12,549 nucleotides of DNA from a virus (IMGVR_UViG_2585427728_000006:1-12549), one strand, 5' to 3'; numbered from the stretch's first letter, positions 1 to 12,549 are shown. Notes: generated by a model not told the origin, from the letters alone. Made by a program: numbers and translations.

Positions 1-1362
1 ATGTTTAAACCGGAACTCCTTTCCCCGGCGGGAACGCTGAAAAATATGCGTTACGCTTTCGCTTATGGCGCAGATGCTGTTTATGCGGGCCAGCCGCGTT
101 ACTCCCTGCGTGTGCGCAACAACGAATTCAACCACGAAAATCTTCAGCTCGGCATCAATGAAGCCCACGCGCTGGGGAAAAAGTTTTATGTCGTGGTCAA
201 CATTGCACCGCACAACGCCAAGCTGAAAACCTTTATCCGTGACCTGAAACCGGTGGTGGAAATGGGGCCGGATGCGCTGATTATGTCCGATCCAGGGCTG
301 ATTATGCTGGTGCGTGAGCACTTCCCTGAAATGCCGATCCACCTCTCGGTGCAGGCTAACGCCGTAAACTGGGCGACGGTGAAATTCTGGCAGCAAATGG
401 GCCTGACCCGCGTGATCCTCTCTCGCGAGCTGTCGCTGGAAGAGATTGAAGAGATCCGCAATCAGGTGCCGGATATGGAGATCGAGATCTTCGTTCACGG
501 CGCACTGTGCATGGCCTACTCCGGTCGCTGCCTGCTCTCTGGCTATATCAACAAGCGCGATCCGAACCAGGGTACCTGCACCAACGCCTGCCGCTGGGAG
601 TACAACGTCCAGGAAGGGAAAGAAGATGACGTTGGCAACATCGTACACAAGTACGAGCCGATTCCGGTGCAAAATGTTGAGCCGACGCTGGGTATCGGCG
701 CGCCAACCGACAAAGTGTTTATGATCGAAGAAGCCCAGCGTCCGGGCGAGTATATGACCGCGTTTGAAGATGAGCACGGCACTTACATCATGAACTCGAA
801 AGATCTGCGCGCCATCGCCCATGTAGAACGCCTGACCAAAATGGGCGTGCATTCGCTGAAAATCGAAGGCCGTACTAAATCTTTCTACTATTGCGCACGC
901 ACCGCACAGGTTTACCGTAAAGCTATCGATGACGCCGCTGCGGGCAAACCGTTCGATACCAGCCTGCTGGAAACTCTGGAAGGTCTGGCGCATCGTGGCT
1001 ATACCGAAGGTTTCCTGCGTCGTCATACTCACGACGATTATCAGAACTACGAATACGGTTATTCAGTTTCTGACCGCCAGCAGTTTGTTGGTGAGTTTAC
1101 CGGTGAGCGCAAGGGGGACCTCGCGGCGGTAGCGGTGAAAAATAAATTCTCCGTTGGCGACAGCCTTGAGCTGATGACGCCGCAAGGCAACATTAACTTT
1201 ACCCTTGAGCACATGGAAAACGCCAAAGGTGAAGCGATGCCGGTCGCACCAGGCGATGGTTATACTGTGTGGCTCCCGGTCCCGCAGGATCTTGAGCTCA
1301 ATTACGCTCTGCTGATGCGTAATTTCTCCGGGGAAACCACGCGTAACCCACACGGTAAGTGA
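1..1362 (+). CDS. yegQ: U32-family peptidase-like protein YegQ (tRNA hydroxylation protein TrhP)
   Basis: Full-length 453-aa ORF starting MFKPELLSPAGT, matching recalled E. coli YegQ; stop TGA at 1360-1362; followed by cyaR as in E. coli. Confidence 0.9.
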   Translation: MFKPELLSPAGTLKNMRYAFAYGADAVYAGQPRYSLRVRNNEFNHENLQLGINEAHALGKKFYVVVNIAPHNAKLKTFIRDLKPVVEMGPDALIMSDPGLIMLVREHFPEMPIHLSVQANAVNWATVKFWQQMGLTRVILSRELSLEEIEEIRNQVPDMEIEIFVHGALCMAYSGRCLLSGYINKRDPNQGTCTNACRWEYNVQEGKEDDVGNIVHKYEPIPVQNVEPTLGIGAPTDKVFMIEEAQRPGEYMTAFEDEHGTYIMNSKDLRAIAHVERLTKMGVHSLKIEGRTKSFYYCARTAQVYRKAIDDAAAGKPFDTSLLETLEGLAHRGYTEGFLRRHTHDDYQNYEYGYSVSDRQQFVGEFTGERKGDLAAVAVKNKFSVGDSLELMTPQGNINFTLEHMENAKGEAMPVAPGDGYTVWLPVPQDLELNYALLMRNFSGETTRNPHGK

Positions 1363-1392
1363 TTAATTTCGATTATTTTTCCCGGATGGAAA

Positions 1393-1446
1393 ATTCTTAG
1401 AAACCGATCACATACAGCTGCATTTATTAAGGTTATCATCCGTTTC
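1393..1446 (+). promoter_or_regulatory. cyaR promoter region with putative CRP site (TTAGA-N6-TCACA, 1396-1411) and -10-like TATCAT (1434-1439)
   Basis: Half-site TCACA is perfect, left half-site is degenerate; spacing to the inferred cyaR 5' end fits a CRP-activated promoter. cyaR is known to be CRP-dependent. Exact positions not verified. Confidence 0.45.
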
Positions 1447-1533
1447 GCTGAAAAACATAACCCATAAAATGCTAGCTGTACCAGGAACCACCTCCTTAGC
1501 CTGTGTAATCTCCCTTACACGGGCTTATTTTTT
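1447..1533 (+). ncRNA. cyaR: Hfq-dependent small RNA CyaR (RyeE)
   Basis: Sequence GCTGAAAAACATAACCCATAAAATGCTAGCTGTACCAGGAACCACCTCCTTAGCCTGTGTAATCTCCCTTACACGGGCTTATTTTTT matches recalled cyaR; lies between yegQ and ogr as in E. coli K-12; ends in a U-tract. Confidence 0.85.
1507..1533. repeat. P2-type att core, left copy (prophage/chromosome junction next to ogr)
   Basis: 27-bp AATCTCCCTTACACGGGCTTATTTTTT, identical to 12046-12072; its reverse complement AAAAAATAAGCCCGTGTAAGGGAGATT matches the recalled P2 att core; overlaps the cyaR 3' end. Confidence 0.85.
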
Positions 1534-1595
1534 ACGTACAACAAATTGAAATAAAAGGATTTATTTCTGGTCACGTCCACACATTGACCACATCG

Positions 1596-1630
1596 ACAAA
1601 AAAGCCCCTCGACTGAGGGGCTTTCTGTTT
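1596..1630 (-). terminator. Rho-independent terminator downstream of ogr (hairpin usable on both strands)
   Basis: Stem GCCCCTC (1604-1610) / GAGGGGC (1615-1621) with 4-nt loop, flanked by an A-run upstream and T-rich run downstream, so a T-tract follows the hairpin on either strand. Confidence 0.55.
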
Positions 1631-1634
1631 GTAA

Positions 1635-1853
1635 TTACATCCACATAATTTGCTGCCCTGACGGCAAGGGGTGCGGCCTCACGGCGTGGACTTCTCCCGG
1701 CTTCACGATGTATCGCTGTACCGACTCATAAGTGATGAACGTGGCGCTGCAATTCACGTTCTGACACTGGTGATAACGCTCTTTTGTCGTGTCAGTGATA
1801 TAGCGACTTGTACGCGCATGTGCGGCATGCTGGCATAAAGGACAATGAAACAT
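1635..1853 (-). CDS. ogr: P2-type late gene transcriptional activator Ogr (zinc-finger)
   Basis: 72-aa product from ATG at 1853: MFHCPLCQHAAHARTSRYITDTTKERYHQCQNVNCSATFITYESVQRYIV..., matching recalled P2 Ogr/OgrK with the C-x2-C...C-x4-C zinc motif. The 93-aa ORF-track version is an upstream extension. Confidence 0.9.
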   Translation of the reverse strand: MFHCPLCQHAAHARTSRYITDTTKERYHQCQNVNCSATFITYESVQRYIVKPGEVHAVRPHPLPSGQQIMWM

Positions 1854-1934
1854 CGCGAGCACCTCTTCCGGTTTTGTTGATGGTGCCATTTTAGTTAATT
1901 TACCCTTATAAAACAAACAGATAAAAACAAAATA

Positions 1935-2189
1935 TTACTCATCACCTTCTGTTTCGTACTCCACATCAGAAAGCCTGACCTCAAGCTCTAAGGACGTCGT
2001 GAAGCCGCTGTTATTCAGAAAATGTGTCACTTTAGTGATTGTCCAGTCCTGCTCGTCTATGACGCGCTTAAAGCCTGACACTTTAACCGGTGTTTCCGTG
2101 TAAATATCTGCCCGACCAGTAGCCAGGCTGATGGAGAACTCCGCTACACCCCGTTGCAGCTTATCCCACTTCGCCTGAGCGGCACGCAT
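1935..2189 (-). pseudogene. C-terminal fragment of P2 gpD-like tail protein (yegZ-like remnant)
   Basis: 84-aa ORF ending ...TTSLELEVRLSDVEYETEGDE resembles the C-terminus of P2 gpD (about 387 aa in P2). Same frame stays open upstream to about 2312 with no plausible start, so the N-terminal roughly 70 percent of D is missing. Confidence 0.75.
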
Positions 2190-3135
2190 GGCCTGTGCTT
2201 TCGTGGCATATACCGTGGTCAGGGCAAAAACGTTATCAGCCTCACCGGCCAGATGGTATGAGCCACCGGTCAGCTTTACCGGTCTGGCAAAAAGCCTGCG
2301 TGCTGCCGTGCATCACAGCTCACCGATTTACGTCAAACGTAATATTCTGGCCTCGACATTTATCCCGCATCCGTGGCTTTCCCAGCAGGATTTCAGCCGC
2401 TTTGCGCTGGATTTTCTGGTGTTCGGTAATGCGTTTCTGGAAAAGCGTTACAGCACCACCGGTAAGGTCATCAGACTGGAACCCTCACCGGCAAAATATC
2501 CCCGCCGTGGCGTGGAGGAGAATGTTTACTGGTGGGTGCCGTCCTTCAACGAGCCGACACCTTTCGCGCCCGGCTCCGTGTTTCATCTGCTGGAGCCGGA
2601 TATTAATCAGGAGCTGTACGGCATGCCGGAATATCTCAGCGCCCTTAACTCTGCCTGGCTGAATGAGTCAGCCACGCTGTTCCGCCGCAAGTATTACGAA
2701 AACGGCGCACATGCCGGATACATCATGTACGTCACTGATGCCGTGCAGGATCGCAACGATATCGAAATGCTTCGCGAAAACATGGTCAAGTCGAAAGGCC
2801 GCAACAACTTTAAAAATCTGTTTCTCTATGCCCCGCAGGGAAAAGCCGACGGCATTAAAATTATCCCGCTCAGTGAAGTGGCAACGAAGGACGATTTTTT
2901 TAATATCAAAAAAGCCAGCGCCGCTGACCTGCTGGACGCGCACCGCATCCCCTTTCAGTTGATGGGCGGCAAGCCGGAGAACGTCGGGTCGCTGGGTGAT
3001 ATTGAGAAAGTGGCAAAGGTCTTTGTCCGCAATGAGCTTATCCCGTTACAGGACAGGATCCGCGAGATAAACGGCTGGCTCGGTCAGGAGGTCATCCGCT
3101 TTAAAAACTACTCACTGGACACTGACAACGGCTGA
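2188..3135 (+). pseudogene. N-terminally truncated P2-like portal protein gpQ
   Basis: ORF product resembles P2-family portal protein and ends next to cos, as Q does in P2. Frame opens only at 2179 and the first ~40 codons overlap the D fragment on the opposite strand, so the genuine Q part probably begins near 2314 and lacks its N-terminus (P2 Q is about 344 aa). No P gene or late promoter upstream. Confidence 0.75.
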
Positions 3136-3140
3136 ACATC

Positions 3141-3162
3141 GCCGCCTGCGGGCGGCTTTTTT
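3141..3162 (+). terminator. Rho-independent terminator after Q remnant
   Basis: GC hairpin GCCGCC-TGCG-GGCGGC (3141-3156) followed by TTTTTT (3157-3162), 5 nt after the Q stop codon. Confidence 0.6.
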
Positions 3163-3304
3163 ACACCCAGTCATCACGCCCTCACACGCTCACCACCGCA
3201 CAAAACAGCCCGCAGACACAGCAACGCCCCGGCGCAAAATCTAAACGCCGCCACGACGCGCTCAGACGCTGAAAAAATAAAATCAGCACCCCCGCCAGCG
3301 CGCA

Positions 3305-3323
3305 GTGCTTTCCCCGCCTCGCC
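3305..3323 (-). other. P2-type cos site (19-nt cohesive-end sequence)
   Basis: GTGCTTTCCCCGCCTCGCC is the reverse complement of GGCGAGGCGGGGAAAGCAC, the recalled P2 cohesive end; adjacent sequence toward Q also resembles the P2 left end. Confidence 0.75.
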
Positions 3324-3653
3324 CGCCCGCTTCATGGGGCGGTTTTGATGCAATACATGAGCATCGTAATGCCATATCGTGACAGGATTATAGAACATGA
3401 AGGTATACTAACTTACACATGCAAAAAAACGCACACTCAGGCATTCTCTTTGGAATACAATATGGTAAAAATATGATCATTTGAAGCTGCATATCCGTGC
3501 AGATTGAAATCAATGATGCTGCCCCTTCGTTAAGACAGCCAGGCCGCAATCTCTTGAGCTCAAGTGGACATCTAAGACAGAAAAACAATTTAAAGGCAAA
3601 GTTTTCGTAATGGTATCTTTGTCACAGCACACGCTAAAAAGGAACTAAACCTC

Positions 3654-4718
3654 ATGAGCACTCAGCAAGTCCTCAACATCCCTACAGCCGTATCGCAAGC
3701 GACCATCGAAAAATGGTTGAAAGGACTGGAACAGACAACGGAATTAGCCTTTTTTCGCCGTGTTGGCGGGCGGCATGGCTTCAATGTTACGAGCCGCTGG
3801 GCAAGTACATTGGATAACTTGAATAAAACTCTGAATGACCCATCGAAGCAAGGTACGCCTGCAAACTTTTCAAATCTCCGTTTGATTACGTTAAAAATAA
3901 TCACTAGCGTAAACCATTATTATTCAATTGATGGTATTAAATCAGGAACCATTAATTTAATACCAAATATAATCAACTACCCTCACCTCGATAAAACATT
4001 TAGCTCAGTATTTCCAATAAAACTTGATGATAATACAGGACTTCCTTCGACTCCTGGGCATTTCATTACTTCCATCGAAAAAATGGGGGATGGTATTGCT
4101 GTAATATATTCCTATATTATTTTAAGAAAAATCCAAGGAAGGAGTAAGCTACGTAGCAATCAATATCCAGAGCAGTACTTCAACACTGTTTTCATCCCTA
4201 ATGATTTAAGCCGTATAGAATATCGGGTTGATAAATCACTAGGTAAAAGAGCGTCTGAAAAAGCGATGGCAGATTTGCGCGCAAAATTTAATGAATTACT
4301 CGTGGAACTTAATATTAAGTTAGCTGTTGAAACTATAAATTTCTACAAAGCAATTTCCAATATTTACCTTGACAAACAATATGGAAGACTTGTTCAGGTT
4401 AATTTCCTTGATCCAAATGGAGATGAGGATGCTGTTCTTCGTTGCAGAACAGACCCCAATTATGATGCCCGTTATCGCGAGGTTGTATCTAAAACTCAGA
4501 ACGGAACACCTCGCTCATTGACCCTTGAAGTTTCTGGCGTTGCAGTGCGATTAGATAGTAAAGTTGCAAACGAAACAATTTCAAATGAAATTGGTTTTGA
4601 ACCCAGCAAAACTGATTGGTCTACAAACAAATTTTGTGGGGATTTTTATTTTACACAAACAGCAGATCATCAGGTGCATTATGGGGTGATAAATGATTTA
4701 CTCACAAGAGCGAAATAA
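3654..4718 (+). CDS. Hypothetical protein, cargo gene 1 of cos-proximal three-gene operon (354 aa, no recognisable family)
   Basis: ATG at 3654 with AAGGA about 10 nt upstream; long ORF in a strongly AT-rich block; first gene of a co-directional tightly packed trio. No Walker A, RT, TIR or Old-like motifs seen. Confidence 0.75.
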   Translation: MSTQQVLNIPTAVSQATIEKWLKGLEQTTELAFFRRVGGRHGFNVTSRWASTLDNLNKTLNDPSKQGTPANFSNLRLITLKIITSVNHYYSIDGIKSGTINLIPNIINYPHLDKTFSSVFPIKLDDNTGLPSTPGHFITSIEKMGDGIAVIYSYIILRKIQGRSKLRSNQYPEQYFNTVFIPNDLSRIEYRVDKSLGKRASEKAMADLRAKFNELLVELNIKLAVETINFYKAISNIYLDKQYGRLVQVNFLDPNGDEDAVLRCRTDPNYDARYREVVSKTQNGTPRSLTLEVSGVAVRLDSKVANETISNEIGFEPSKTDWSTNKFCGDFYFTQTADHQVHYGVINDLLTRAK

Positions 4719-5127
4719 AAAAATGCGCTCATTAGTGTATAAACAAAGAGTACTCCTGGAGAATGCCGGAAGCTCTTCTGTTTTCATAAATAATGATTCT
4801 CACATATATTATACAAATTTACTAGAATATGTAGAGGGTGATCTTGATCGTAATATTTATACAATCCCAGTATTACGAAAAGCCATAAAAACTGACAATT
4901 ATGAACATTTGCTACGAGTTGTTCAATTTTTTAGTAGCAATACCTCTTGTTTATTTAACGTTAAATATTGCTACGAACTAGAAAACATGGAGTTTGAGGA
5001 CATACAAGCTGATGAATATACCAACTATATATTAAACGGAGTTGAACCTGTAACTGCCAATGGTTCTGAAATTGAAGACTTCAATCCAAAATATCTTTCA
5101 TTTTATTGCATAATAAACCTGGATTGA
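4693..5127 (+). CDS. Hypothetical small acidic protein, cargo gene 2 (144 aa; alternative start at 4723 gives 134 aa)
   Basis: ATG at 4693 preceded by GGGGTG; overlaps gene 1 by 26 nt; stop TGA 5125-5127 lies 5 nt before the gene 3 ATG. Asp/Glu-rich, no recognisable motif. Confidence 0.6.
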   Translation: MIYSQERNKKMRSLVYKQRVLLENAGSSSVFINNDSHIYYTNLLEYVEGDLDRNIYTIPVLRKAIKTDNYEHLLRVVQFFSSNTSCLFNVKYCYELENMEFEDIQADEYTNYILNGVEPVTANGSEIEDFNPKYLSFYCIINLD

Positions 5128-5132
5128 CTGTC

Positions 5133-5981
5133 ATGAACAAACAACAAATCACATGTGAGTTAGGCAAAAGGGTTCATTTTGAAGATGAAGCGAGTTTTAT
5201 TGAAACATTATACTCGGATATAGAAGTCATAATAAAACTAATGGAGCAATCTAGTGACAAGTATTATTGTGATGATGAAGATAAACTAAGCCATACAATT
5301 GTAGCCTCTCTTGTACACCTAGGTTACGATGCAACCGAACAAACAAAAAAAAATGGAAGTGTGGACATAACCGTTCGTCCGAAAAATGGAGGATATACAT
5401 GGATTGCTGAAGCAAAAATCGGATACGGGAACCAAAAAATATTCGAGGGGCTACTTCAGTTGCTTACTCGCTATGTTAAAAGAGATAATCATGCAGGCAT
5501 GGTTATCTATTATCAAAAATCAAAGTCATCTTATCATTTCAAACAATGGCTGAAATACATATACAACCATGAGTGGAAGGATTATTGTACAAAGAAAGGG
5601 TCATTAAAAAAAGCGACTCCGCTACTTTCTCATTTAAAAAGTACGGTTTGTCCGAAAGTCAAACAAGGCTGTTGTTATGCTGACATTGATGTCATCCAAC
5701 CTTCGACTGATGGTCTAAAACTTCGCTGCTTCTATATTGACGTGCATCATGACCCAATTGACAGTAGTGGTTTAAAGAATAAGTCAATCGCCTTTGGTCA
5801 AGCCCAAAATAGAATTAGAGATTTATATCACTTATGGAAGACAGGACAGTTCGACGGCAGTATGATAGATGAATTATTTGAAGAAATAAAAATATATCAT
5901 AGCAATGAACTTGACGAAGAATATGAAGATGAAGATGAAGATGAAGATGAAGATGAAGATTCGAATATAAACTCAAAATGA
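5133..5981 (+). CDS. Hypothetical protein with PD-(D/E)xK nuclease-like signature and poly-(Glu-Asp) C-terminal tail, cargo gene 3
   Basis: ATG at 5133 (the ORF-track start at 5106 is TTG). Contains GSVDITV...(14 aa)...WIAEAKIG, i.e. D78 and E93-x-K95, a spacing typical of PD-(D/E)xK cores; C-terminus EYEDEDEDEDEDEDSNINSK. Confidence 0.7.
   Translation: MNKQQITCELGKRVHFEDEASFIETLYSDIEVIIKLMEQSSDKYYCDDEDKLSHTIVASLVHLGYDATEQTKKNGSVDITVRPKNGGYTWIAEAKIGYGNQKIFEGLLQLLTRYVKRDNHAGMVIYYQKSKSSYHFKQWLKYIYNHEWKDYCTKKGSLKKATPLLSHLKSTVCPKVKQGCCYADIDVIQPSTDGLKLRCFYIDVHHDPIDSSGLKNKSIAFGQAQNRIRDLYHLWKTGQFDGSMIDELFEEIKIYHSNELDEEYEDEDEDEDEDEDSNINSK
5925..5960 (+). repeat. Perfect hexanucleotide tandem repeat (GAAGAT)x6 inside gene 3
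   Basis: Six exact tandem copies of GAAGAT, in frame, encoding (Glu-Asp)6. Confidence 0.95.
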
Positions 5982-5994
5982 ACACCAAGAATCA

Positions 5995-6028
5995 CCCCAT
6001 TAAGTTTAGACATCCTAACTTGATGGGG
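5995..6028. terminator. Putative hairpin between convergent cargo gene 3 and A
   Basis: CCCCATTAAG (5995-6004) pairs with CTTGATGGGG (6019-6028) with one G-U position and a 14-nt loop; no strong T-tract on either strand, so function is uncertain. Confidence 0.3.
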
Positions 6029-6116
6029 AATTGACTTTTAAGTCTGTAACCCTAGCCATCAAAAATAGATTCATTTTAAATAAAAATATATCCGTTACGC
6101 CCCAAAAAAAATTGAA

Positions 6117-8387
6117 TTAATTAGGAAAAACACTCCCAGTTGGAATTTTTTTAAATTTATATTTCCTCCCATCGAAACATACTGTCGCACCGCGTGCTAA
6201 TACCTGTGGTTCCCATTGATTCGGCGTAATACCCTCCTGAGCCAACTCGAATCTTATACGTGGCGTCTGTTCCCGTTCAGCTTTTGTCATTCGTCCTGAG
6301 GGCGCTATCTGATAAGGTTTTAATGGCTCACAGCTCTTTTGCTGGCGATTTGGTCGTGGCGCATCGTGTTTTAGTGCGCATCTGAGCCCCGTCACGACTT
6401 CAGGGTCATCCCAGCCGATAACCCCGCGCTCAATCAGATTCAACACCGCTGCTGCTTGCTCAGAAGGTATGGATGTCATAGCAGGATCGCCACCGCTAGT
6501 TAGCTTTCCACAGTTATTGACAGGACTCCGAGGCGCGGCGATGCCGCTTTTTAAAGTCAAAGGCTCAACGACCGGCACTTTCGGAACAATGCGCCAGTCC
6601 GTCGTTCTGGTGATATGAATATGACGCGCGCCGAGATGCGGCGCGTAAATGCCGACCACTCTCTCGACTTCTTCCTCGTACTCGTTAACTTCATCCGACG
6701 GACTACGGGCAACCCTGACAGTCTGACAATCGCGCGGAACATTTGCCCCACCCTGCGCGCTGATATACAACGCAAAATCACCACTGTCTGCGGCAGCGCG
6801 TGCAGCCTCGACGCGTTCGTCAAACTCATCAGCAATGCTGACGCCGCGAGGCAATTTGCGTAGTTCACGGTAAGCCCCCATTGTCGGCAGGCCAACCGTT
6901 TTAAATTGCGGAATGCGCCACGTTGACGCCCATGCGGTAACAGCCGCGGCAGTGTCTTTCAGCGGCCTGCCGGTATCGTTATCGAGCTGACCATCCAGTG
7001 CATAGCCATCGATGTTTTTTGAGATGTATTTCGCGATATATCCCGCAGCACCGCCCCGGTTAAGGTGTTTTGCCTGAAAACGGTTTCGCGCGGCTCCTCT
7101 TTCGTCACCATCCTCTTTGAGCGCATAGCGACGCATGATTTCGATAATCTGGTTACGCTGGCGTGGATTACAAAAAAGCATCATATGCCAGTGCGGCGTT
7201 CCGTCGTGGTGTGGCTCGACGACTCGCAAACCGTAGACCTGTAAATCATTATCCTTGAATGCCGTGCGCATCAGGCTCCAGATGCGGCAGAGATAACGCT
7301 GCGCATCCTTTGGATTAAATGCCTCATCATTCCAGCCGTGATTTAGCTGGACGGTTTTACTTTCGCCTTTTCCGACCTGACGTGTCGGGTGATACTTTGA
7401 CGGCGCGGTCAGCGTGATAAACATCCCCACATCACCCTCTGCGGCGGCGTAACGCTCAATACCGGCGATGGTGTTCATCAGCTCCATCCGGCGAATTTCT
7501 GGATTAGAAATACTGCCCATCACCTTACTGATAAGGTCGATGCGCTCGCCGGTTTCCCTGTTTTCAAGGTCACACGATTTAAGAAATTCCAGATTTGCCT
7601 GGCGGCGCGCACACACATCACGAATGGCATGTTTACTGGCATAAGGAGAACGGTCTTTATTCACCTCCCCGACAGCAATCAGTAACGCCTCATGCCAGCG
7701 CATACGCTGGCCTTTAAGCTGACTAATCCACCACTCATCGTTAAACAGACGGGCAATGGCAGAATATGCCTGCCTCGTGGTCATCTGTCCTTTACGGTAT
7801 TTTTTCCAGTAGAGAGGGGAAATATTGAAAGCACGTGCAGCGCCAGCAACATGACCATACAGATGCGCCTGCGCCTCATCTGTAAACAGCGATTCTTTCT
7901 CGCCATGTGCATCAACCCATGCATCGCAGAGTTCCTCATACATCATGAAAAGCTGCGATGAGATACGGGCGGCAAACTTTTTCAGCTCCTTGTCATTCAT
8001 CCCCGGCAGACGCGCATAATGGTCACGCTCTGCCAGAAACAGCAACGACGCGTCGGTGTTCATTTCATGGCGCTGATTCACGCGCTCAATACGCGGCCAT
8101 AAACGGCGCTGAAAAGTGGATGTGAGGAAATAAAATCCGTGCACCGGGCTTTTATTGCGCCGGATGTAGTCATAGCGTGAAGTAAACAGCGAGCGCAAAA
8201 AGTAAGGCAGGCGATTAATCGTGGATAAAACACCTTGCACCTGACGCATCTCGTCACGTGTAAGGGGTCTTTCGCGCCCGACGGCCTCGCGTGGCGCGTT
8301 CCATGCATAAGCACCGGTAAACGTCTCACCGGTGCCTGCGGCAAATGCTGACGGAGGGACAAAACGCCCGGAGGCTTTAACGGCCAT
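6117..8387 (-). CDS. A: P2-type replication initiation protein gpA (rolling-circle HUH endonuclease)
   Basis: 756 aa from ATG at 8387 (MAVKASGRFVPP...), closely matching recalled P2 gpA, including the HWHMMLF (HUH) and YIAKYISK motifs. The ORF-track start at 8429 is TTG. Confidence 0.9.
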   Translation of the reverse strand: MAVKASGRFVPPSAFAAGTGETFTGAYAWNAPREAVGRERPLTRDEMRQVQGVLSTINRLPYFLRSLFTSRYDYIRRNKSPVHGFYFLTSTFQRRLWPRIERVNQRHEMNTDASLLFLAERDHYARLPGMNDKELKKFAARISSQLFMMYEELCDAWVDAHGEKESLFTDEAQAHLYGHVAGAARAFNISPLYWKKYRKGQMTTRQAYSAIARLFNDEWWISQLKGQRMRWHEALLIAVGEVNKDRSPYASKHAIRDVCARRQANLEFLKSCDLENRETGERIDLISKVMGSISNPEIRRMELMNTIAGIERYAAAEGDVGMFITLTAPSKYHPTRQVGKGESKTVQLNHGWNDEAFNPKDAQRYLCRIWSLMRTAFKDNDLQVYGLRVVEPHHDGTPHWHMMLFCNPRQRNQIIEIMRRYALKEDGDERGAARNRFQAKHLNRGGAAGYIAKYISKNIDGYALDGQLDNDTGRPLKDTAAAVTAWASTWRIPQFKTVGLPTMGAYRELRKLPRGVSIADEFDERVEAARAAADSGDFALYISAQGGANVPRDCQTVRVARSPSDEVNEYEEEVERVVGIYAPHLGARHIHITRTTDWRIVPKVPVVEPLTLKSGIAAPRSPVNNCGKLTSGGDPAMTSIPSEQAAAVLNLIERGVIGWDDPEVVTGLRCALKHDAPRPNRQQKSCEPLKPYQIAPSGRMTKAEREQTPRIRFELAQEGITPNQWEPQVLARGATVCFDGRKYKFKKIPTGSVFPN

Positions 8388-8652
8388 ATGAGCCAAAAGC
8401 CTCTGAACAACGCTTGCTGAGTTGCTCAACCTGCGCGTTTAAATCAGCAAAAGACTTTGCGCTTCCGGTCAGAATATCGTGATGCATCAGGCCGGAAACA
8501 AGCTGGCTTAATTTCGGATAATAACCAACCACCGCCAGCCATTCCTGACCGGCGTTTTTACCGCTTTCCGCTCTCTTTTTCTCGTGGAGAATAAACTGAA
8601 AGCTGTCACTGGTAACGACATAACGTTCGCCAATTTCAATACGAATACTCAT
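8377..8652 (-). CDS. P2 early-operon hypothetical protein (position of P2 orf83)
   Basis: 91-aa ORF; its ATG (8650-8652) overlaps the stop of the upstream gene, and its own stop overlaps the start of A; position between B and A as in P2. Confidence 0.7.
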   Translation of the reverse strand: MSIRIEIGERYVVTSDSFQFILHEKKRAESGKNAGQEWLAVVGYYPKLSQLVSGLMHHDILTGSAKSFADLNAQVEQLSKRCSEAFGSYGR

Positions 8653-8873
8653 GCCGTTCTCCGGTAATGTTTGTTTTTTGCTTCAAAGACTGACTGGCAG
8701 GAAACACAACGCGTGGCTGACGGATAAGCCGCACGACGGGCAGCAGGTATTGGCGCGTCACACTCTTCGCAAACCAGCGCAGAAGCACCGCAATGTTTTA
8801 CCCTTGCCGCGTTAATCTGACGCTCCAGTAATTCAGCCTGTTGTTCCTGAATAAAATCTACGTTGTCCGGCAT
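8649..8873 (-). CDS. TraR/DksA-family C4 zinc-finger protein (position of P2 orf82)
   Basis: 74-aa ORF with C-x2-C-x17-C-x2-C (CEECDAPIPAARRAAYPSATRCVSCQ); start overlaps the upstream stop (TAATG). Confidence 0.75.
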   Translation of the reverse strand: MPDNVDFIQEQQAELLERQINAARVKHCGASALVCEECDAPIPAARRAAYPSATRCVSCQSVFEAKNKHYRRTA

Positions 8874-9175
8874 TACCAGCTCCTTTTGTCGTTAAGTTTT
8901 TTAAATTCATCAGCGCAATAGCTGGCAATTTCTGTCGTTAATTTCGTCAGTTCATCCACGGAGGAGATTTGCTTGTGAAATACAGCGCGTTTAACAAGTA
9001 AATTGACCACATCAGACAGGAGATTTAATTCGTTCTGATAAATCGCGATAACAGACTCAGTTATTTCGCGTTTTTCTTTATCAAGACCAAGTTGAATAAG
9101 AGATAAATCGCCATTTTTCATAACGGTGATTTTTAAGGCGTTATTCAGTAATACAACTGAACGAGAACAGGACAT
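8873..9175 (-). CDS. P2 early-operon hypothetical protein (position of P2 orf81)
   Basis: 100 aa from ATG at 9175, which overlaps the stop of the upstream gene (TGATG); the 9178 start in the ORF track is TTG. Confidence 0.65.
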   Translation of the reverse strand: MSCSRSVVLLNNALKITVMKNGDLSLIQLGLDKEKREITESVIAIYQNELNLLSDVVNLLVKRAVFHKQISSVDELTKLTTEIASYCADEFKKLNDKRSW

Positions 9176-9399
9176 CAAAGCACCTCCCCGCGAGACAATC
9201 CGATATTGTGAAATTTTTCCGACTCCTGACTGAGCAGCTCGACTATCTCCACGCGGGATAACTCCGCCTTTGTGATGTGGCGAATCATGGCGTCAAGATG
9301 AGAAGAAAAGCGCGTCGCTGCGTCGGCCTGTGCTTCGGTTCTGGCCTGTTGCAGCAGTAATGCGTATTTACCGCACTGATTTTCAGAAACTGTATGCAT
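9175..9399 (-). CDS. P2 early-operon hypothetical protein (position of P2 orf80)
   Basis: 74 aa from ATG at 9399 (MHTVSEN...) with GGAGAAAG upstream; the longer ORF-track version starts at a TTG. Confidence 0.65.
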
Positions 9400-9462
9400 G
9401 ACTTTCTCCAGGCAAAAAGAAGCCCCGCACAATTAAGTGCGTTAAAAACTCTGGTTAATTAC

Positions 9463-9963
9463 TTAATGCAGATATTGCTCTGGTTTTACCGACGTCAGAA
9501 TTGTCGGTGCATACTCAAACAGGCTGAATAATTCACGTAATGCACGGAATAAAGCATCACGCCAGTAACATGATTCTTCATTAATTCGCCAGTATGGCTG
9601 GTTGAATTCTTTTTCAGTCAATCCGGCATGCATAAATAAAGTACGACGCTGACTGACTGTTAAAAAACTAATATATGCATACTCACTTGCGCCAACCTGA
9701 CGGCGTTTGGAGAATGCCCCACGCAATTCATCAATTGCACAAACCAGCCGTTCACGTTCGACGTCGTTCATTTCTTCAAAACGCATCGTTGCGTGACGCT
9801 GTTTTAACTGCGCATGGAAGCAAACCGTTAGCCGTTCGCGTTCCATCATCTGATTATAATAATCGCATGTCTCCTGCCAGCGAGGGACGGCCAGATGCTT
9901 ACCAATTATCCGGCGCATAGCTGCTGGCTGTTTTTCAACGAGATTGAGCGTCATCACTGTCAT
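9463..9963 (-). CDS. B: P2-type replication protein gpB (helicase-loader-like)
   Basis: 166 aa, MTVMTLNLVEKQPAAMRRIIGKHLAVPRWQ..., matching recalled P2 gpB over its whole length. Confidence 0.9.
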   Translation of the reverse strand: MTVMTLNLVEKQPAAMRRIIGKHLAVPRWQETCDYYNQMMERERLTVCFHAQLKQRHATMRFEEMNDVERERLVCAIDELRGAFSKRRQVGASEYAYISFLTVSQRRTLFMHAGLTEKEFNQPYWRINEESCYWRDALFRALRELFSLFEYAPTILTSVKPEQYLH

Positions 9964-10130
9964 TTCCAGACCCTCCGGCTTTTCAGAAAGGTCAGAGTCT
10001 TTTTTAACGGACTCTGTTTTTTGGTGCGGATAATGATTCCCTTACGCCCCTTACCGTGGGTGATGGTGAAGTCAATCGCCCTGGGGCTTTCGTTACGCAA
10101 TAACTGAGCAATACAACGAGGCTCATTCAT
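9960..10130 (-). CDS. Small hypothetical protein (position of P2 orf78)
   Basis: 56 aa from ATG at 10130 with a perfect AAGGAG upstream; the ORF-track start at 10154 is GTG. Confidence 0.6.
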   Translation of the reverse strand: MNEPRCIAQLLRNESPRAIDFTITHGKGRKGIIIRTKKQSPLKKTLTFLKSRRVWK

Positions 10131-10140
10131 ACGGTTCTCC

Positions 10141-10416
10141 TTAACGTGGTTCACCGAGACCTAACCACATCAACCAGCCGTCACGAATCTCTTTAGGACG
10201 GCTTTCATAAGCCAGTTTTAGTCCGTTATTCCATGCCGGAAGGTATACCCAATATTCACCAGCACGCCCCGATACTGACTGAGGGTCAGTAATCTCAATA
10301 ACTGGTAATTTCCCTTTCTCAATCATGCCCCTTACAGCTCTTGGAGTTTTACCAATGAGTTTTGCAAACTCCTGATAAGGCACGGCATCAGTCACGCTTA
10401 CAAGCTGTCTATTCAT
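10141..10416 (-). CDS. cox: P2-type Cox protein (excisionase / repressor of Pc)
   Basis: 91 aa, ...PYQEFAKLIGK...GRAGEYWVYLPAWNNGLKLAYESRPKEIRDGWLMWLGLGEPR, matching recalled P2 Cox; first gene of the leftward early operon. Confidence 0.9.
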   Translation of the reverse strand: MNRQLVSVTDAVPYQEFAKLIGKTPRAVRGMIEKGKLPVIEITDPQSVSGRAGEYWVYLPAWNNGLKLAYESRPKEIRDGWLMWLGLGEPR

Positions 10417-10537
10417 CTGCTACGATTCTCCCTTAGTGCTTCTAATGGCTCCTAATGGCTAATTATTGCCTAAAAGGATAACTCCAGAAGCACAACATTT
10501 CACACTATCAGCAAGAAATTACGCAATCGGAGTAATT
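10417..10537. promoter_or_regulatory. Divergent cox / C control region (Pe/Pc promoters and operator) with tandem 10-bp direct repeats
   Basis: Intergenic region between divergent cox and C; TCTAATGGCT / CCTAATGGCT tandem repeats at 10441-10460 are candidate C-repressor half-sites. Exact promoter elements not assigned. Confidence 0.6.
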
Positions 10538-10837
10538 ATGTCAATAGACGTTTCGGAGAAGTTGAAGCTAATCCGTGAATCTGAAAGGTTAAACCGTAAA
10601 GAATTCAGTGAATTAACTGGTGTAGCCTACAGCTCACTTTCGAGCTATGAGAGCCGGTCAAAAAACGCTGGAGTTGAAGCCATAATGAAGGTCTTACAAC
10701 ATCCCAGATTTACTAAATATACTTTGTGGTTCATGACTGATCAGGTAGCTCCAGAAGCCGGGCAAATTGCGCCCGCTCTCGCACACTTTGGGCAAAACGA
10801 AACAACGTCGCCCCACTCCGGTCAAAAGACTGGTTAA
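10538..10837 (+). CDS. C: P2-type immunity repressor C
   Basis: 99 aa from ATG at 10538; C-terminal half ...FTKYTLWFMTDQVAPEAGQIAPALAHFGQNETTSPHSGQKTG matches recalled P2 C; N-terminal DNA-binding part looks divergent from P2. Confidence 0.85.
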   Translation: MSIDVSEKLKLIRESERLNRKEFSELTGVAYSSLSSYESRSKNAGVEAIMKVLQHPRFTKYTLWFMTDQVAPEAGQIAPALAHFGQNETTSPHSGQKTG

Positions 10838-10952
10838 CAATTTATCGTGAATATATTCATCACAAGTGCCTACTATTGGTGGCTAAATTTCAGCCACCAC
10901 GAAAAAAGCGATTAGTAGTAGCAAAAAAAAGTACCACTCGGAGGGTTTTCTG

Positions 10953-11966
10953 ATGGCAATCAAAAAACTCGATGATGGTCGATATGAAGTGGACATCCGC
11001 CCTACTGGACGTAACGGAAAACGCATCCGTAGGAAGTTTGATAAGAAAAGCGAAGCTGTCGCTTTCGAAAAATACACGTTGTACAACCACCACAATAAAG
11101 AATGGCTATCAAAACCAACAGACAAACGACGTCTGTCGGAACTGACACAGATCTGGTGGGATTTAAAGGGTAAACACGAAGAGCATGGGAAATCTAATCT
11201 TGGAAAAATTGAAATCTTCACAAAAATAACGAATGACCCATGCGCATTTCAAATCACGAAATCCCTTATCAGCCAGTACTGCGCCACCCGAAGAAGTCAG
11301 GGTATTAAACCTTCGAGTATCAATCGTGATTTAACATGTATTAGCGGCATGTTTACAGCCCTGATTGAAGCGGAGTTATTCTTTGGTGAGCACCCTATCA
11401 GAGGGACAAAGAGGCTTAAGGAGGAAAAACCAGAAACAGGCTATCTCACACAGGAAGAAATTGCCTTACTGCTTGCAGCACTTGACGGCGACAACAAAAA
11501 GATTGCGATTCTTTGCCTGAGTACAGGAGCACGTTGGGGAGAAGCAGCTCGTTTAAAAGCAGAAAATATCATCCATAACCGCGTCACGTTTGTTAAAACG
11601 AAAACAAACAAACCACGCACCGTCCCGATCTCAGAGGCTGTTGCCAAAATGATCGCGGATAACAAACGAGGTTTTTTATTCCCTGATGCTGATTACCCTC
11701 GCTTCAGACGAACAATGAAAGCAATAAAACCGGATTTGCCAACGGGGCAAGCCACACATGCACTAAGGCACAGCTTTGCCACTCATTTCATGATTAATGG
11801 AGGAAGTATTATCACGCTACAACGGATACTAGGTCACACGCGGATTGAGCAAACTATGGTTTACGCTCATTTTGCGCCAGAGTACCTTCAGGACGCCATT
11901 TCTCTTAATCCGCTAAGAGGTGGTACTGAAGCCGAGAGTGTCCACACAGTGTCCACAGTAGAGTAA
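10953..11966 (+). CDS. int: P2-type integrase (tyrosine recombinase)
   Basis: 337 aa, GGAGGG SD upstream; C-terminal catalytic region HALRHSFATHF...LGHTRIEQTMVYAHF with the catalytic Tyr; downstream of C as in P2 and adjacent to the att core. Confidence 0.9.
   Translation: MAIKKLDDGRYEVDIRPTGRNGKRIRRKFDKKSEAVAFEKYTLYNHHNKEWLSKPTDKRRLSELTQIWWDLKGKHEEHGKSNLGKIEIFTKITNDPCAFQITKSLISQYCATRRSQGIKPSSINRDLTCISGMFTALIEAELFFGEHPIRGTKRLKEEKPETGYLTQEEIALLLAALDGDNKKIAILCLSTGARWGEAARLKAENIIHNRVTFVKTKTNKPRTVPISEAVAKMIADNKRGFLFPDADYPRFRRTMKAIKPDLPTGQATHALRHSFATHFMINGGSIITLQRILGHTRIEQTMVYAHFAPEYLQDAISLNPLRGGTEAESVHTVSTVE
11938..11957. repeat. Tandem direct repeats GTGTCCACA x2: putative Int arm-type binding sites
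   Basis: Two exact 9-bp copies 11 bp apart at the 3' end of int, about 90 bp from the att core; a related GTCCACACA occurs in the other arm at 1574-1583. Confidence 0.5.
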
Positions 11967-12045
11967 CGTTTAAGGGCTTTCAGTGGTAATTTATGCCGCT
12001 CAAACCCGCATTGTACCGTTGAAAGCCCCTACTGGTGACACCCTA

Positions 12046-12072
12046 AATCTCCCTTACACGGGCTTATTTTTT
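12046..12072. repeat. P2-type att core, right copy (prophage/chromosome junction next to int)
   Basis: 27-bp exact direct repeat of 1507-1533, followed by one extra T. Confidence 0.85.
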
Positions 12073-12136
12073 TATGCATAAGCCCTATCTCTGGTAACCG
12101 TCTTCCATTGACCACATCGATAGAATCCTCCTTCAT

Positions 12137-12169
12137 AGCACGATGCCTTTCACTTATCGGCATCGTGCT
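12137..12169. repeat. Perfect 11-bp inverted repeat (stem-loop) between att core and yegR
   Basis: AGCACGATGCC (12137-12147) and GGCATCGTGCT (12159-12169) with an 11-nt loop; no adjacent T-tract on either strand. Confidence 0.5.
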
Positions 12170-12231
12170 CCCACAGGTTCCGGCTACGCACAGCCAGAAC
12201 GCGCATATTTGACGCTTACCAAAAAATATTC

Positions 12232-12549
12232 TCACTCTCCACATTTGAATGTCAGACGAGCGACACCATGTAATCCTACACCTTCTGTCTTCAGCTCAAC
12301 TATTTGCATTTTTTTGCCCTGAGTAACACAGAAATGAGTTGCATCATTTTTTACTATATTTTCTGCACCAGATATTCTACCCCTGGCTAAAGAAGCTTCG
12401 GCTTCGGTGTAGTATTGGTTATCGAGTTTACGCTGAATATTACTTTTATATGCAAGACCAAATTTACCGATACTTGTCTCATCATTATGCACAGCACAAC
12501 CAGACATAATAAAAATACTAATTAATGATATAGCAGCTATCTTTTTCAT
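12232..12549 (-). CDS. yegR: Putative lipoprotein YegR
   Basis: Complete 105-aa ORF (start codon is the last 3 nt of the window) with signal peptide and lipobox (IFIMSGC); matches recalled E. coli YegR. Confidence 0.85.
   Translation of the reverse strand: MKKIAAISLISIFIMSGCAVHNDETSIGKFGLAYKSNIQRKLDNQYYTEAEASLARGRISGAENIVKNDATHFCVTQGKKMQIVELKTEGVGLHGVARLTFKCGE

Follow-up and report, generated by a model that had tools for sequence, protein, structure and literature searches.

A defective P2-like prophage at the cyaR site of Escherichia coli, very probably formed by an internal deletion joining remnants of genes Q and D

Introduction

In phage P2, the portal gene Q and the tail gene D are widely separated, with the Q start at 1221 and the D start at 22791, that is, 21.6 kb apart, in good agreement with the roughly 20 kb given in the original prediction for this locus. 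In the DNA analyzed here, a stretch of 12,549 nucleotides hereafter called the window, remnants of these two genes are in direct contact. This arrangement raises the question of how the two remnants were brought together and what kind of element has been left behind. We find that positions 1507-12072 very probably represent a defective, or 'grounded', P2-like (Peduovirus) prophage of 10,566 bp, residing in E. coli and formed by an internal deletion between Q and D.

A P2-like prophage inserted at cyaR

The insertion point of the prophage is the 3' end of cyaR, between yegQ (trhP) and yegR. In the ORF map, yegQ/trhP occupies positions 1-1362 (plus strand), followed by the small RNA gene cyaR at 1445-1530 (plus strand; Rfam RF00112, 100.7 bits, E = 1.2e-19), the 3' terminator of which overlaps the att core, with a terminator-like hairpin detected at 1498-1525 by the hairpin scan. 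The left 27-bp P2 att core, attR (AATCTCCCTTACACGGGCTTATTTTTT, 1507-1533), is a perfect direct repeat of the right core, attL, located by a repeat search at 12046-12072; beyond attL lie host DNA and the host gene yegR (12232-12549, minus strand). Both 27-bp repeats correspond to the P2 attP core (24356-24382), and the alignment to P2 begins at window position 1507, the equivalent of P2 24382. The element thus displays the duplicated 27-bp core of integration at the P2 attachment site, with host genes outside both cores. The flank comprising yegQ and cyaR is 100% identical to that of E. coli A23, and positions 12055-12549, on the yegR side, are 100% identical to K-12.

Separately, we observed that a host segment immediately outside the right core (12086-12125) shares 75% identity over 40 nt with phage DNA immediately inside the left core (1562-1601). 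The same host sequence is found in K-12, and the 'empty' bacterial site thus already resembles the scar of an older P2-type arm.

Between the cores, the gene order attR-ogr-D, Q-cos-A-B-cox-C-int-attL is collinear with that of P2 at 93-97% DNA identity (blastn), and the 13 P2 proteins matched in the window by tblastn keep the P2 order. As intact comparators, we used P2 itself (NC_001895) and the prophages of E. coli A23 (NZ_CP028752) and ET350 (NZ_CP100966), which share the att site and core, gene order and orientation, and show 93-100% DNA identity over everything the window retains. All three carry the P-to-U block (20.2-22.6 kb) that is absent from the window, and the C region of the window differs from that of each of them.

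The joint between the D and Q remnants

The original prediction had described a C-terminal fragment of gpD on the minus strand adjoining an N-terminally truncated portal gene Q on the plus strand, and the P2 alignment, tblastn and Pfam all agree with this description. Alignments to P2, A23 and ET350 unanimously place the joint at 2250/2251, with nothing between the two remnants. Window positions 1507-2251 correspond to P2 24382-23638 (96.6% identity, E = 0), encompassing the att core, the ogr terminator, ogr and the end of D, and positions 2250-3323 correspond to P2 1072-1 (95.8% identity, E = 0), encompassing Q from nt 150, the terminator tQ and the left cohesive end. In three-way alignments with P2 and A23, the dinucleotide CA at the deletion joint (2250-2251) is the sole sequence common to both parental sites; alignment to P2-like genomes, which the original prediction had proposed as its check, has thus yielded both the breakpoint and its microhomology. 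At the joint and at the parental sites there is no IS element and nothing that resembles an att site, and a repeat search of the window revealed no repeat there beyond 2 nt.

The D remnant, D' (1935-2251, minus strand), consists of the last 317 nt of the tail gene (approximately residues 283-387 of 387) and was delineated by alignment to P2 and A23, tblastn and Pfam; in A23, window position 2251 falls 317 nt from the 3' end of D. This remnant lacks the upstream part of the gene along with the F-operon promoter. Its translation aligns without gaps to residues 282-387 of P2 gpD (97%, tblastn) and matches positions 232-304 of the 305-position Pfam profile Phage_GPD, the C-terminal end. The Q remnant, 'Q (2250-3135, plus strand), is the portal gene without its first 149 nt (49 codons and 2 nt) and without its promoter pP; it was recognized by the P2 alignment, the Pfam profile Phage_portal and tblastn, with an ungapped match to residues 48-343 of P2 gpQ (97%). 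Downstream of Q lies the terminator tQ (3141-3156, plus strand), a GC-rich hairpin followed by a T run that is equivalent to P2 tQ (160-181).

The original prediction also held that the two remnants face each other, and this wording has to be reversed: the fragments read away from each other, D' toward ogr and 'Q toward cos, with their truncated 5' ends abutting. This is the native relative orientation of the two genes in P2, and we therefore consider the rearrangement a plain deletion, with no inversion.

The open frames do overlap on opposite strands at 2188-2312, exactly as predicted. On the minus strand, the D' ORF (1935-2189) encodes 84 aa, and its frame contains no stop between 2312 and 1938, and the uppermost 21 codons of this open stretch are antisense to Q. 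On the plus strand, the ORF list and translation give a chimeric ORF of 315 aa (2188-3135, ATG at 2188), in which 21 codons antisense to D precede Q codons 51-344. The overlap simply results from the joint, which runs each frame into the antisense of the other gene. A promoter scan of 1400-3449 detected no sigma-70-like promoter. With pF and pP, their native promoters, lost and no promoter-like site nearby, D', 'Q and the chimeric ORF would be silent, inert leftovers. Neither the D nor the Q leftover contains stops or frameshifts, which suggests that the deletion is evolutionarily young.

Taken together, these features point to an internal deletion that would have extended from nt 150 of Q to nt 847 of D, fusing the remnants at 2250/2251. 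Since the parental sites share only the 2 nt CA and there is no IS element or repeat at the joint, we infer that joining was homology-independent (illegitimate) and proceeded via replication slippage or end joining. At the joint, resemblance to the att core does not rise above background, and with CA as the only common sequence, the joint falls into the class of microhomology or illegitimate deletions.

What the deletion removed

The missing interval spans P2 positions 1073-23637 (22,565 bp) and amounts to 21,094 bp relative to the intact A23 prophage and 20,230 bp relative to that of ET350. According to the P2 annotation, 25 genes were lost, from P to U, together with all four late promoters. 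A tblastn search with all 41 P2 proteins matched none of these 25 in the window, among them P, O, N, M, L, X, Y, K, lysA, lysB, R, S, V, W and J, as well as I, H, G, FI, FII, E, T and U. The lost functions include the terminase (P, M), scaffold, capsid and head completion (O, N, L), lysis (Y, K, lysA, lysB, lysC), and the tail and baseplate genes X to U, along with the Z/fun cargo slot.

The element is therefore a defective prophage in the usual sense, lacking genes essential for virion assembly, packaging and lysis, with Q and D themselves truncated, and we infer that it can no longer make particles or lyse its host. The original prediction that a deletion had removed virion production is thus supported, as P to U are absent in the tblastn search and three alignments define one joint. 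The window contains the two att cores along with host DNA on either side; hence, the missing genes are not elsewhere in this prophage. The two findings that would have overturned the prediction did not materialize: both segments, D and Q, align collinearly with a P2-type genome in their native orientation, and the missing genes are absent from the att-bounded prophage.

What the prophage retains

The set of features said to have been kept, namely, cos, int, C, cox, B, A, ogr and the cargo, proved to be full length and uninterrupted throughout. By tblastn, Ogr, Int, C, Cox, Orf78, B, Orf80-83 and A all align to their P2 counterparts over their full length without gaps. On the left, the hairpin terminator of ogr and the F operon (1601-1624) was assigned by coordinate transfer from P2 24265-24288 and by the hairpin scan. 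It is followed by the intact gene of the late-gene activator, ogr (1635-1853, minus strand), the product of which is identical to P2 Ogr at 72 of 72 aa (Pfam Ogr_Delta, E = 1.1e-21) and which keeps its own promoter region (approximately 1887-1916, the equivalent of P2 23973-24002). With the late promoters gone, Ogr would be left without a target in cis.

The 19-nt cohesive-end sequence cos, identified by alignments to the P2 ends, is located at 3305-3323, with flanks conserved on both sides; window positions 3305-3352 align to the P2 right end, and the left-end alignment (to base 1) and the right-end alignment (from 33593) overlap on exactly these 19 nt. Further right, the window is collinear with P2 30260-24356 over 6161-12072, from A back to int and the att core. 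The early operon (6117-10416, minus strand), comprising cox, orf78, B, orf80, orf81, orf82, orf83 and A, is intact, its products are 84-100% identical to the P2 proteins, and the replication origin lies inside A. The integrase gene int (10953-11966, plus strand) is also intact, its product matching P2 Int over 337 of 337 aa with 99.7% identity.

The C immunity repressor (10538-10837, plus strand; 99 aa) matches P2 C over its full length at 65% identity (phrog_147, E = 2e-43). In this region, the segment 10395-10680, which contains the 5' part of C, the Pe/Pc promoter-operator and the cox start, is only 63-79% identical to P2, A23 and ET350, compared with 96-99% for its flanks. Because of this divergence, and because C is 65% and Cox 84% identical to their P2 counterparts, the immunity type of the prophage is assigned here, on its sequence, as different from that of P2. 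The functions that may have survived the deletion are immunity (C), excision (int, cox, att cores and arms) and replication (A, B, ori), along with cos and the cargo.

The cargo consists of three genes (3654-5981, plus strand; ORFs of 354, 144 and 282-291 aa, 32-37% G+C) that fill the position of P2 old/tin between A and cos; P2 has old, tin and orf91 at this position. The A-Q cargo hotspot is a known defence hotspot of P2-like phages (PMC9122126). No Pfam or NCBIfam family was detected for the three proteins, which matched only PHROGs of unknown function. The product of gene 3 showed a weak PADLOC match to the candidate system PDC-S54 (E = 2.8e-7), and the first cargo protein is recorded in 266 blocks of the assembly collection. 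We also observed that the third protein ends in an Asp/Glu tail encoded by a (GAAGAT)n repeat (5905-5960), the copy number of which varies in frame, by +6 nt or -12 nt, among the four known copies of the element.

The cargo is 99.6-100% identical to that of the intact A23 prophage. The A23 prophage and the window element thus form a natural pair, with and without virion genes, that carries the identical uncharacterised cargo and could be used to test whether this cargo has an anti-phage role and whether a grounded prophage still excises or replicates.

One deletion or several

One joint is most simply read as the trace of one deletion event. The competing reading, in which the joint is the end product of at least two successive deletions, the later ones erasing the earlier joints, is unlikely but has to be taken seriously, in view of the other remnants found at this locus. 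At least 17 other E. coli genomes contain P2-like remnants at the cyaR site, with 1-3 internal late-region deletions each. Two or three such deletions are frequently found in the same remnant, several remnants look like larger deletions nested on smaller ones with one end in common, and nested deletions would leave an identical single joint. However, the window element has only one joint, neither of its endpoints (D+317, Q+150) matches an endpoint in any other remnant, and no intermediate is present among 5,426 complete E. coli genomes. A single deletion accordingly remains our preferred reading of the joint.

Most of these sister remnants keep int-to-A, the A-Q hotspot cargo, cos and ogr, a pattern toward which the sample is biased, because the window itself served as the query in retrieving it; others lack part of A, part of ogr, the early region or int. 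Every joint differs, most sisters have undergone two or three deletions, and other cargo is present (SIR2/ATPase, retron, ABC-3C, NACHT and others). Set among these remnants, the window is best described as one point on a continuum of prophage decay. Defective P2-like prophages with intact defence genes have already been described as a class (PMC13586616).

Deletion endpoints of the sister remnants at the cyaR site (loci L006-L010, L014, L022, L025 and L033-L039, the window being no part of this set) recur within 1-6 nt between strains, while being paired with different partner endpoints and, in some cases, with retention of the opposite side. The recurrent endpoints are ogr+203, D+150, D+470/471, FII+302/307, FI+618/623, V+271-276, S+421/422, M+310/313 and P+1487-1493, the last of these in four strains; the window joint is not at any of them. 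The dinucleotide TA lies within the microhomology in at least 11 of 31 joints, compared with 3.45% of the dinucleotides there, and the sites often read SYTA^(N)CC. Two candidate causes of the recurrence were considered and rejected. For P2 Int acting at att-core-like pseudo-sites, ungapped similarity to the 13-nt core center was at background, and the best core-like sites were not used by the deletions; for the P2 A protein, the ori nickase, the P2 ori nick site has no such motif.

Copies of the joint and the possibility of mobilization

Two draft E. coli genomes and two metagenome contigs carry the identical joint, in each case at the cyaR site and with the same host flanks. Exact look-up of the 84-aa D' product identified both drafts, GCA_000713425.1, which matches 12,189 nt of the window at 100% identity, and GCA_000713775.1, which is 99.97% identical, as well as a JGI metagenome contig with the same arrangement. 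The fourth copy, retrieved in a metagenome scan, is a contig of 10,730 bp spanning window positions 1431-12172; the idea that this contig derives from an excised circle was rejected, as host DNA is present at both ends, which marks it as an integrated copy. The 28-nt joint sequence is absent from the 5,426 complete E. coli genomes, from the GTDB species-representative genomes and from the 2.9 million IMG/VR viral contigs scanned. Exact look-up of the 315-aa chimeric ORF gave no match, presumably because gene callers picked another start.

The copies are separated by 4-12 substitutions, along with changes of repeat length in cargo gene 3 that preserve the reading frame. At 2482, 3291 and 6388, the window has C where the three non-identical copies (L013, L015 and L032) have A; the same C-versus-A difference is found at 2500 in L013 and L032, and at 11184 in L015. 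All substitutions in L013 and L015 are of this C-versus-A type, and these could be either lineage-specific changes or a signature of sequencing damage in one data set.

The retained gene set also admits a more dynamic reading, that of a helper-dependent 'mini-P2', in which co-infection by a heteroimmune P2-like phage could excise, amplify and package the element, for example, as a trimer, and so spread the cargo. By sequence, int, cox, both att sites, A, B, ori, ogr and cos are intact, and the element, at 10.6 kb, is about the size of P4; three copies (3 x 10.57 kb = 31.7 kb) would come close to a P2 headful. P4 sid mutants are packaged as multimers. We nevertheless regard this reading as very unlikely: all five occurrences share one chromosomal site and one set of flanks, and one of them lies on a contig that runs into host DNA at either end; the scan of 2.9 million viral contigs returned no match; genes for capsid-size determination or helper derepression are missing from the element; and the sister remnants form a decay continuum that includes loss of A and int. 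Were it nevertheless correct, the element would be a satellite in the making, born of a single deletion.

Parentage of the two sides

Comparison with the intact relatives does not single out one parent. ET350 is the nearest relative for the ogr-D' end (99.9-100%) and A23 for the cargo, cos and the 3' end of A (99.6-100%); Q is only 96-98% identical to either. With no single intact parent found, and P2-like phages being mosaic, the common origin of the two sides of the joint rests on parsimony.

The split affinities of the two sides are what would be expected if the element descended from a tandem double lysogen, in which a deletion of approximately 53 kb began in D of the prophage next to cyaR and ended in Q of the second prophage, joining sides from different phages. 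Such mosaicism, however, is normal among P2-like prophages and extends throughout the early region as well, and a rarer starting state and a much larger deletion would be required for the same result, making this origin highly improbable. A false joining of D' and 'Q during assembly, conceivable insofar as the joint-bearing GCA_000713425.1 is a draft contig, can be dismissed, because another draft genome and two metagenome contigs from independent assemblies contain the same 28-mer joint, which has only 2 nt of homology and no longer repeat that could mislead an assembler. Deletion within one prophage remains the reading we adopt.

Comparison with known systems

The element invites comparison with the satellite P4, which it approaches in size (10.6 versus 11.6 kb) and with which it shares a P2-type cos, an activator of the Ogr/Delta type, an integrase and autonomous replication functions. 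In contrast to P4, it has no sid, psu, epsilon or alpha-type genes, and its replication and integration genes are P2's own. Every ORF of the element is either a P2 early gene or codes for one of the three cargo proteins, and no P4-like satellite gene is found among them; nor is there a sign of P4-like spread, the joint having no match in IMG/VR and all five copies occupying one site.

Closer parallels are provided by remnants at the same locus. In strains 18AR0366, GF4, H5, FT130 and 23CRST025, late genes were lost via internal deletions with 0-6 nt of microhomology, and int-to-A, cargo, cos, part or all of Q, and ogr were retained. Two of the five, 18AR0366 (D+229|Q+594) and GF4 (D+381|Q+173), also have a direct D'-'Q joint, at positions different from that in the window (D+317|Q+150).

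The best-known remnant at this site is that of E. coli K-12, ogrK-yegZ, annotated as 'cryptic prophage PR-X', which likewise lies at the 3' end of cyaR between yegQ and yegR. A 1992 paper by Barreiro and Haggard-Ljungquist (J Bacteriol 174:4086) reportedly deals with this cryptic P2 remnant. The original prediction had likened the cyaR-ogr-D arrangement of the window to ogrK/yegZ, and on the left the likeness holds: the attR-ogr-D' end is kept in both, and window positions 1-2149 are collinear with K-12 2165668-2167816 at 97.7% identity. It does not extend to the deletion itself, which is a different one, the D fragment of K-12 (yegZ) being 215 nt long versus 317 nt in the window, that is, 102 nt shorter. 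The K-12 joint connects the equivalent of window position 2149 to 12055, inside the attL core, with TACAC/ACAC microhomology, so that the K-12 deletion extends through Q, cos, cargo, A, B, cox, C and int and leaves approximately 0.63 kb of phage DNA, compared with 10.6 kb in the window. This joint (D+215 to the attL core) is not present in the window, which continues 102 nt further into D and then into Q. Judged by these joints, K-12 carries a separate, larger deletion, and the window element could not descend from the K-12 form. The K-12 joint is also the only one we saw with an endpoint in the att core, and integrase-promoted aberrant excision would fit there.

Taken alone, the element described here matters little, as a further snapshot of P2 prophage decay at a well-known attachment site. 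Its value lies in offering a precisely mapped, apparently young deletion, and, seen next to it and its sisters, the K-12 ogrK/yegZ scar proves to be just one among many remnants that arose at this locus by independent decay.
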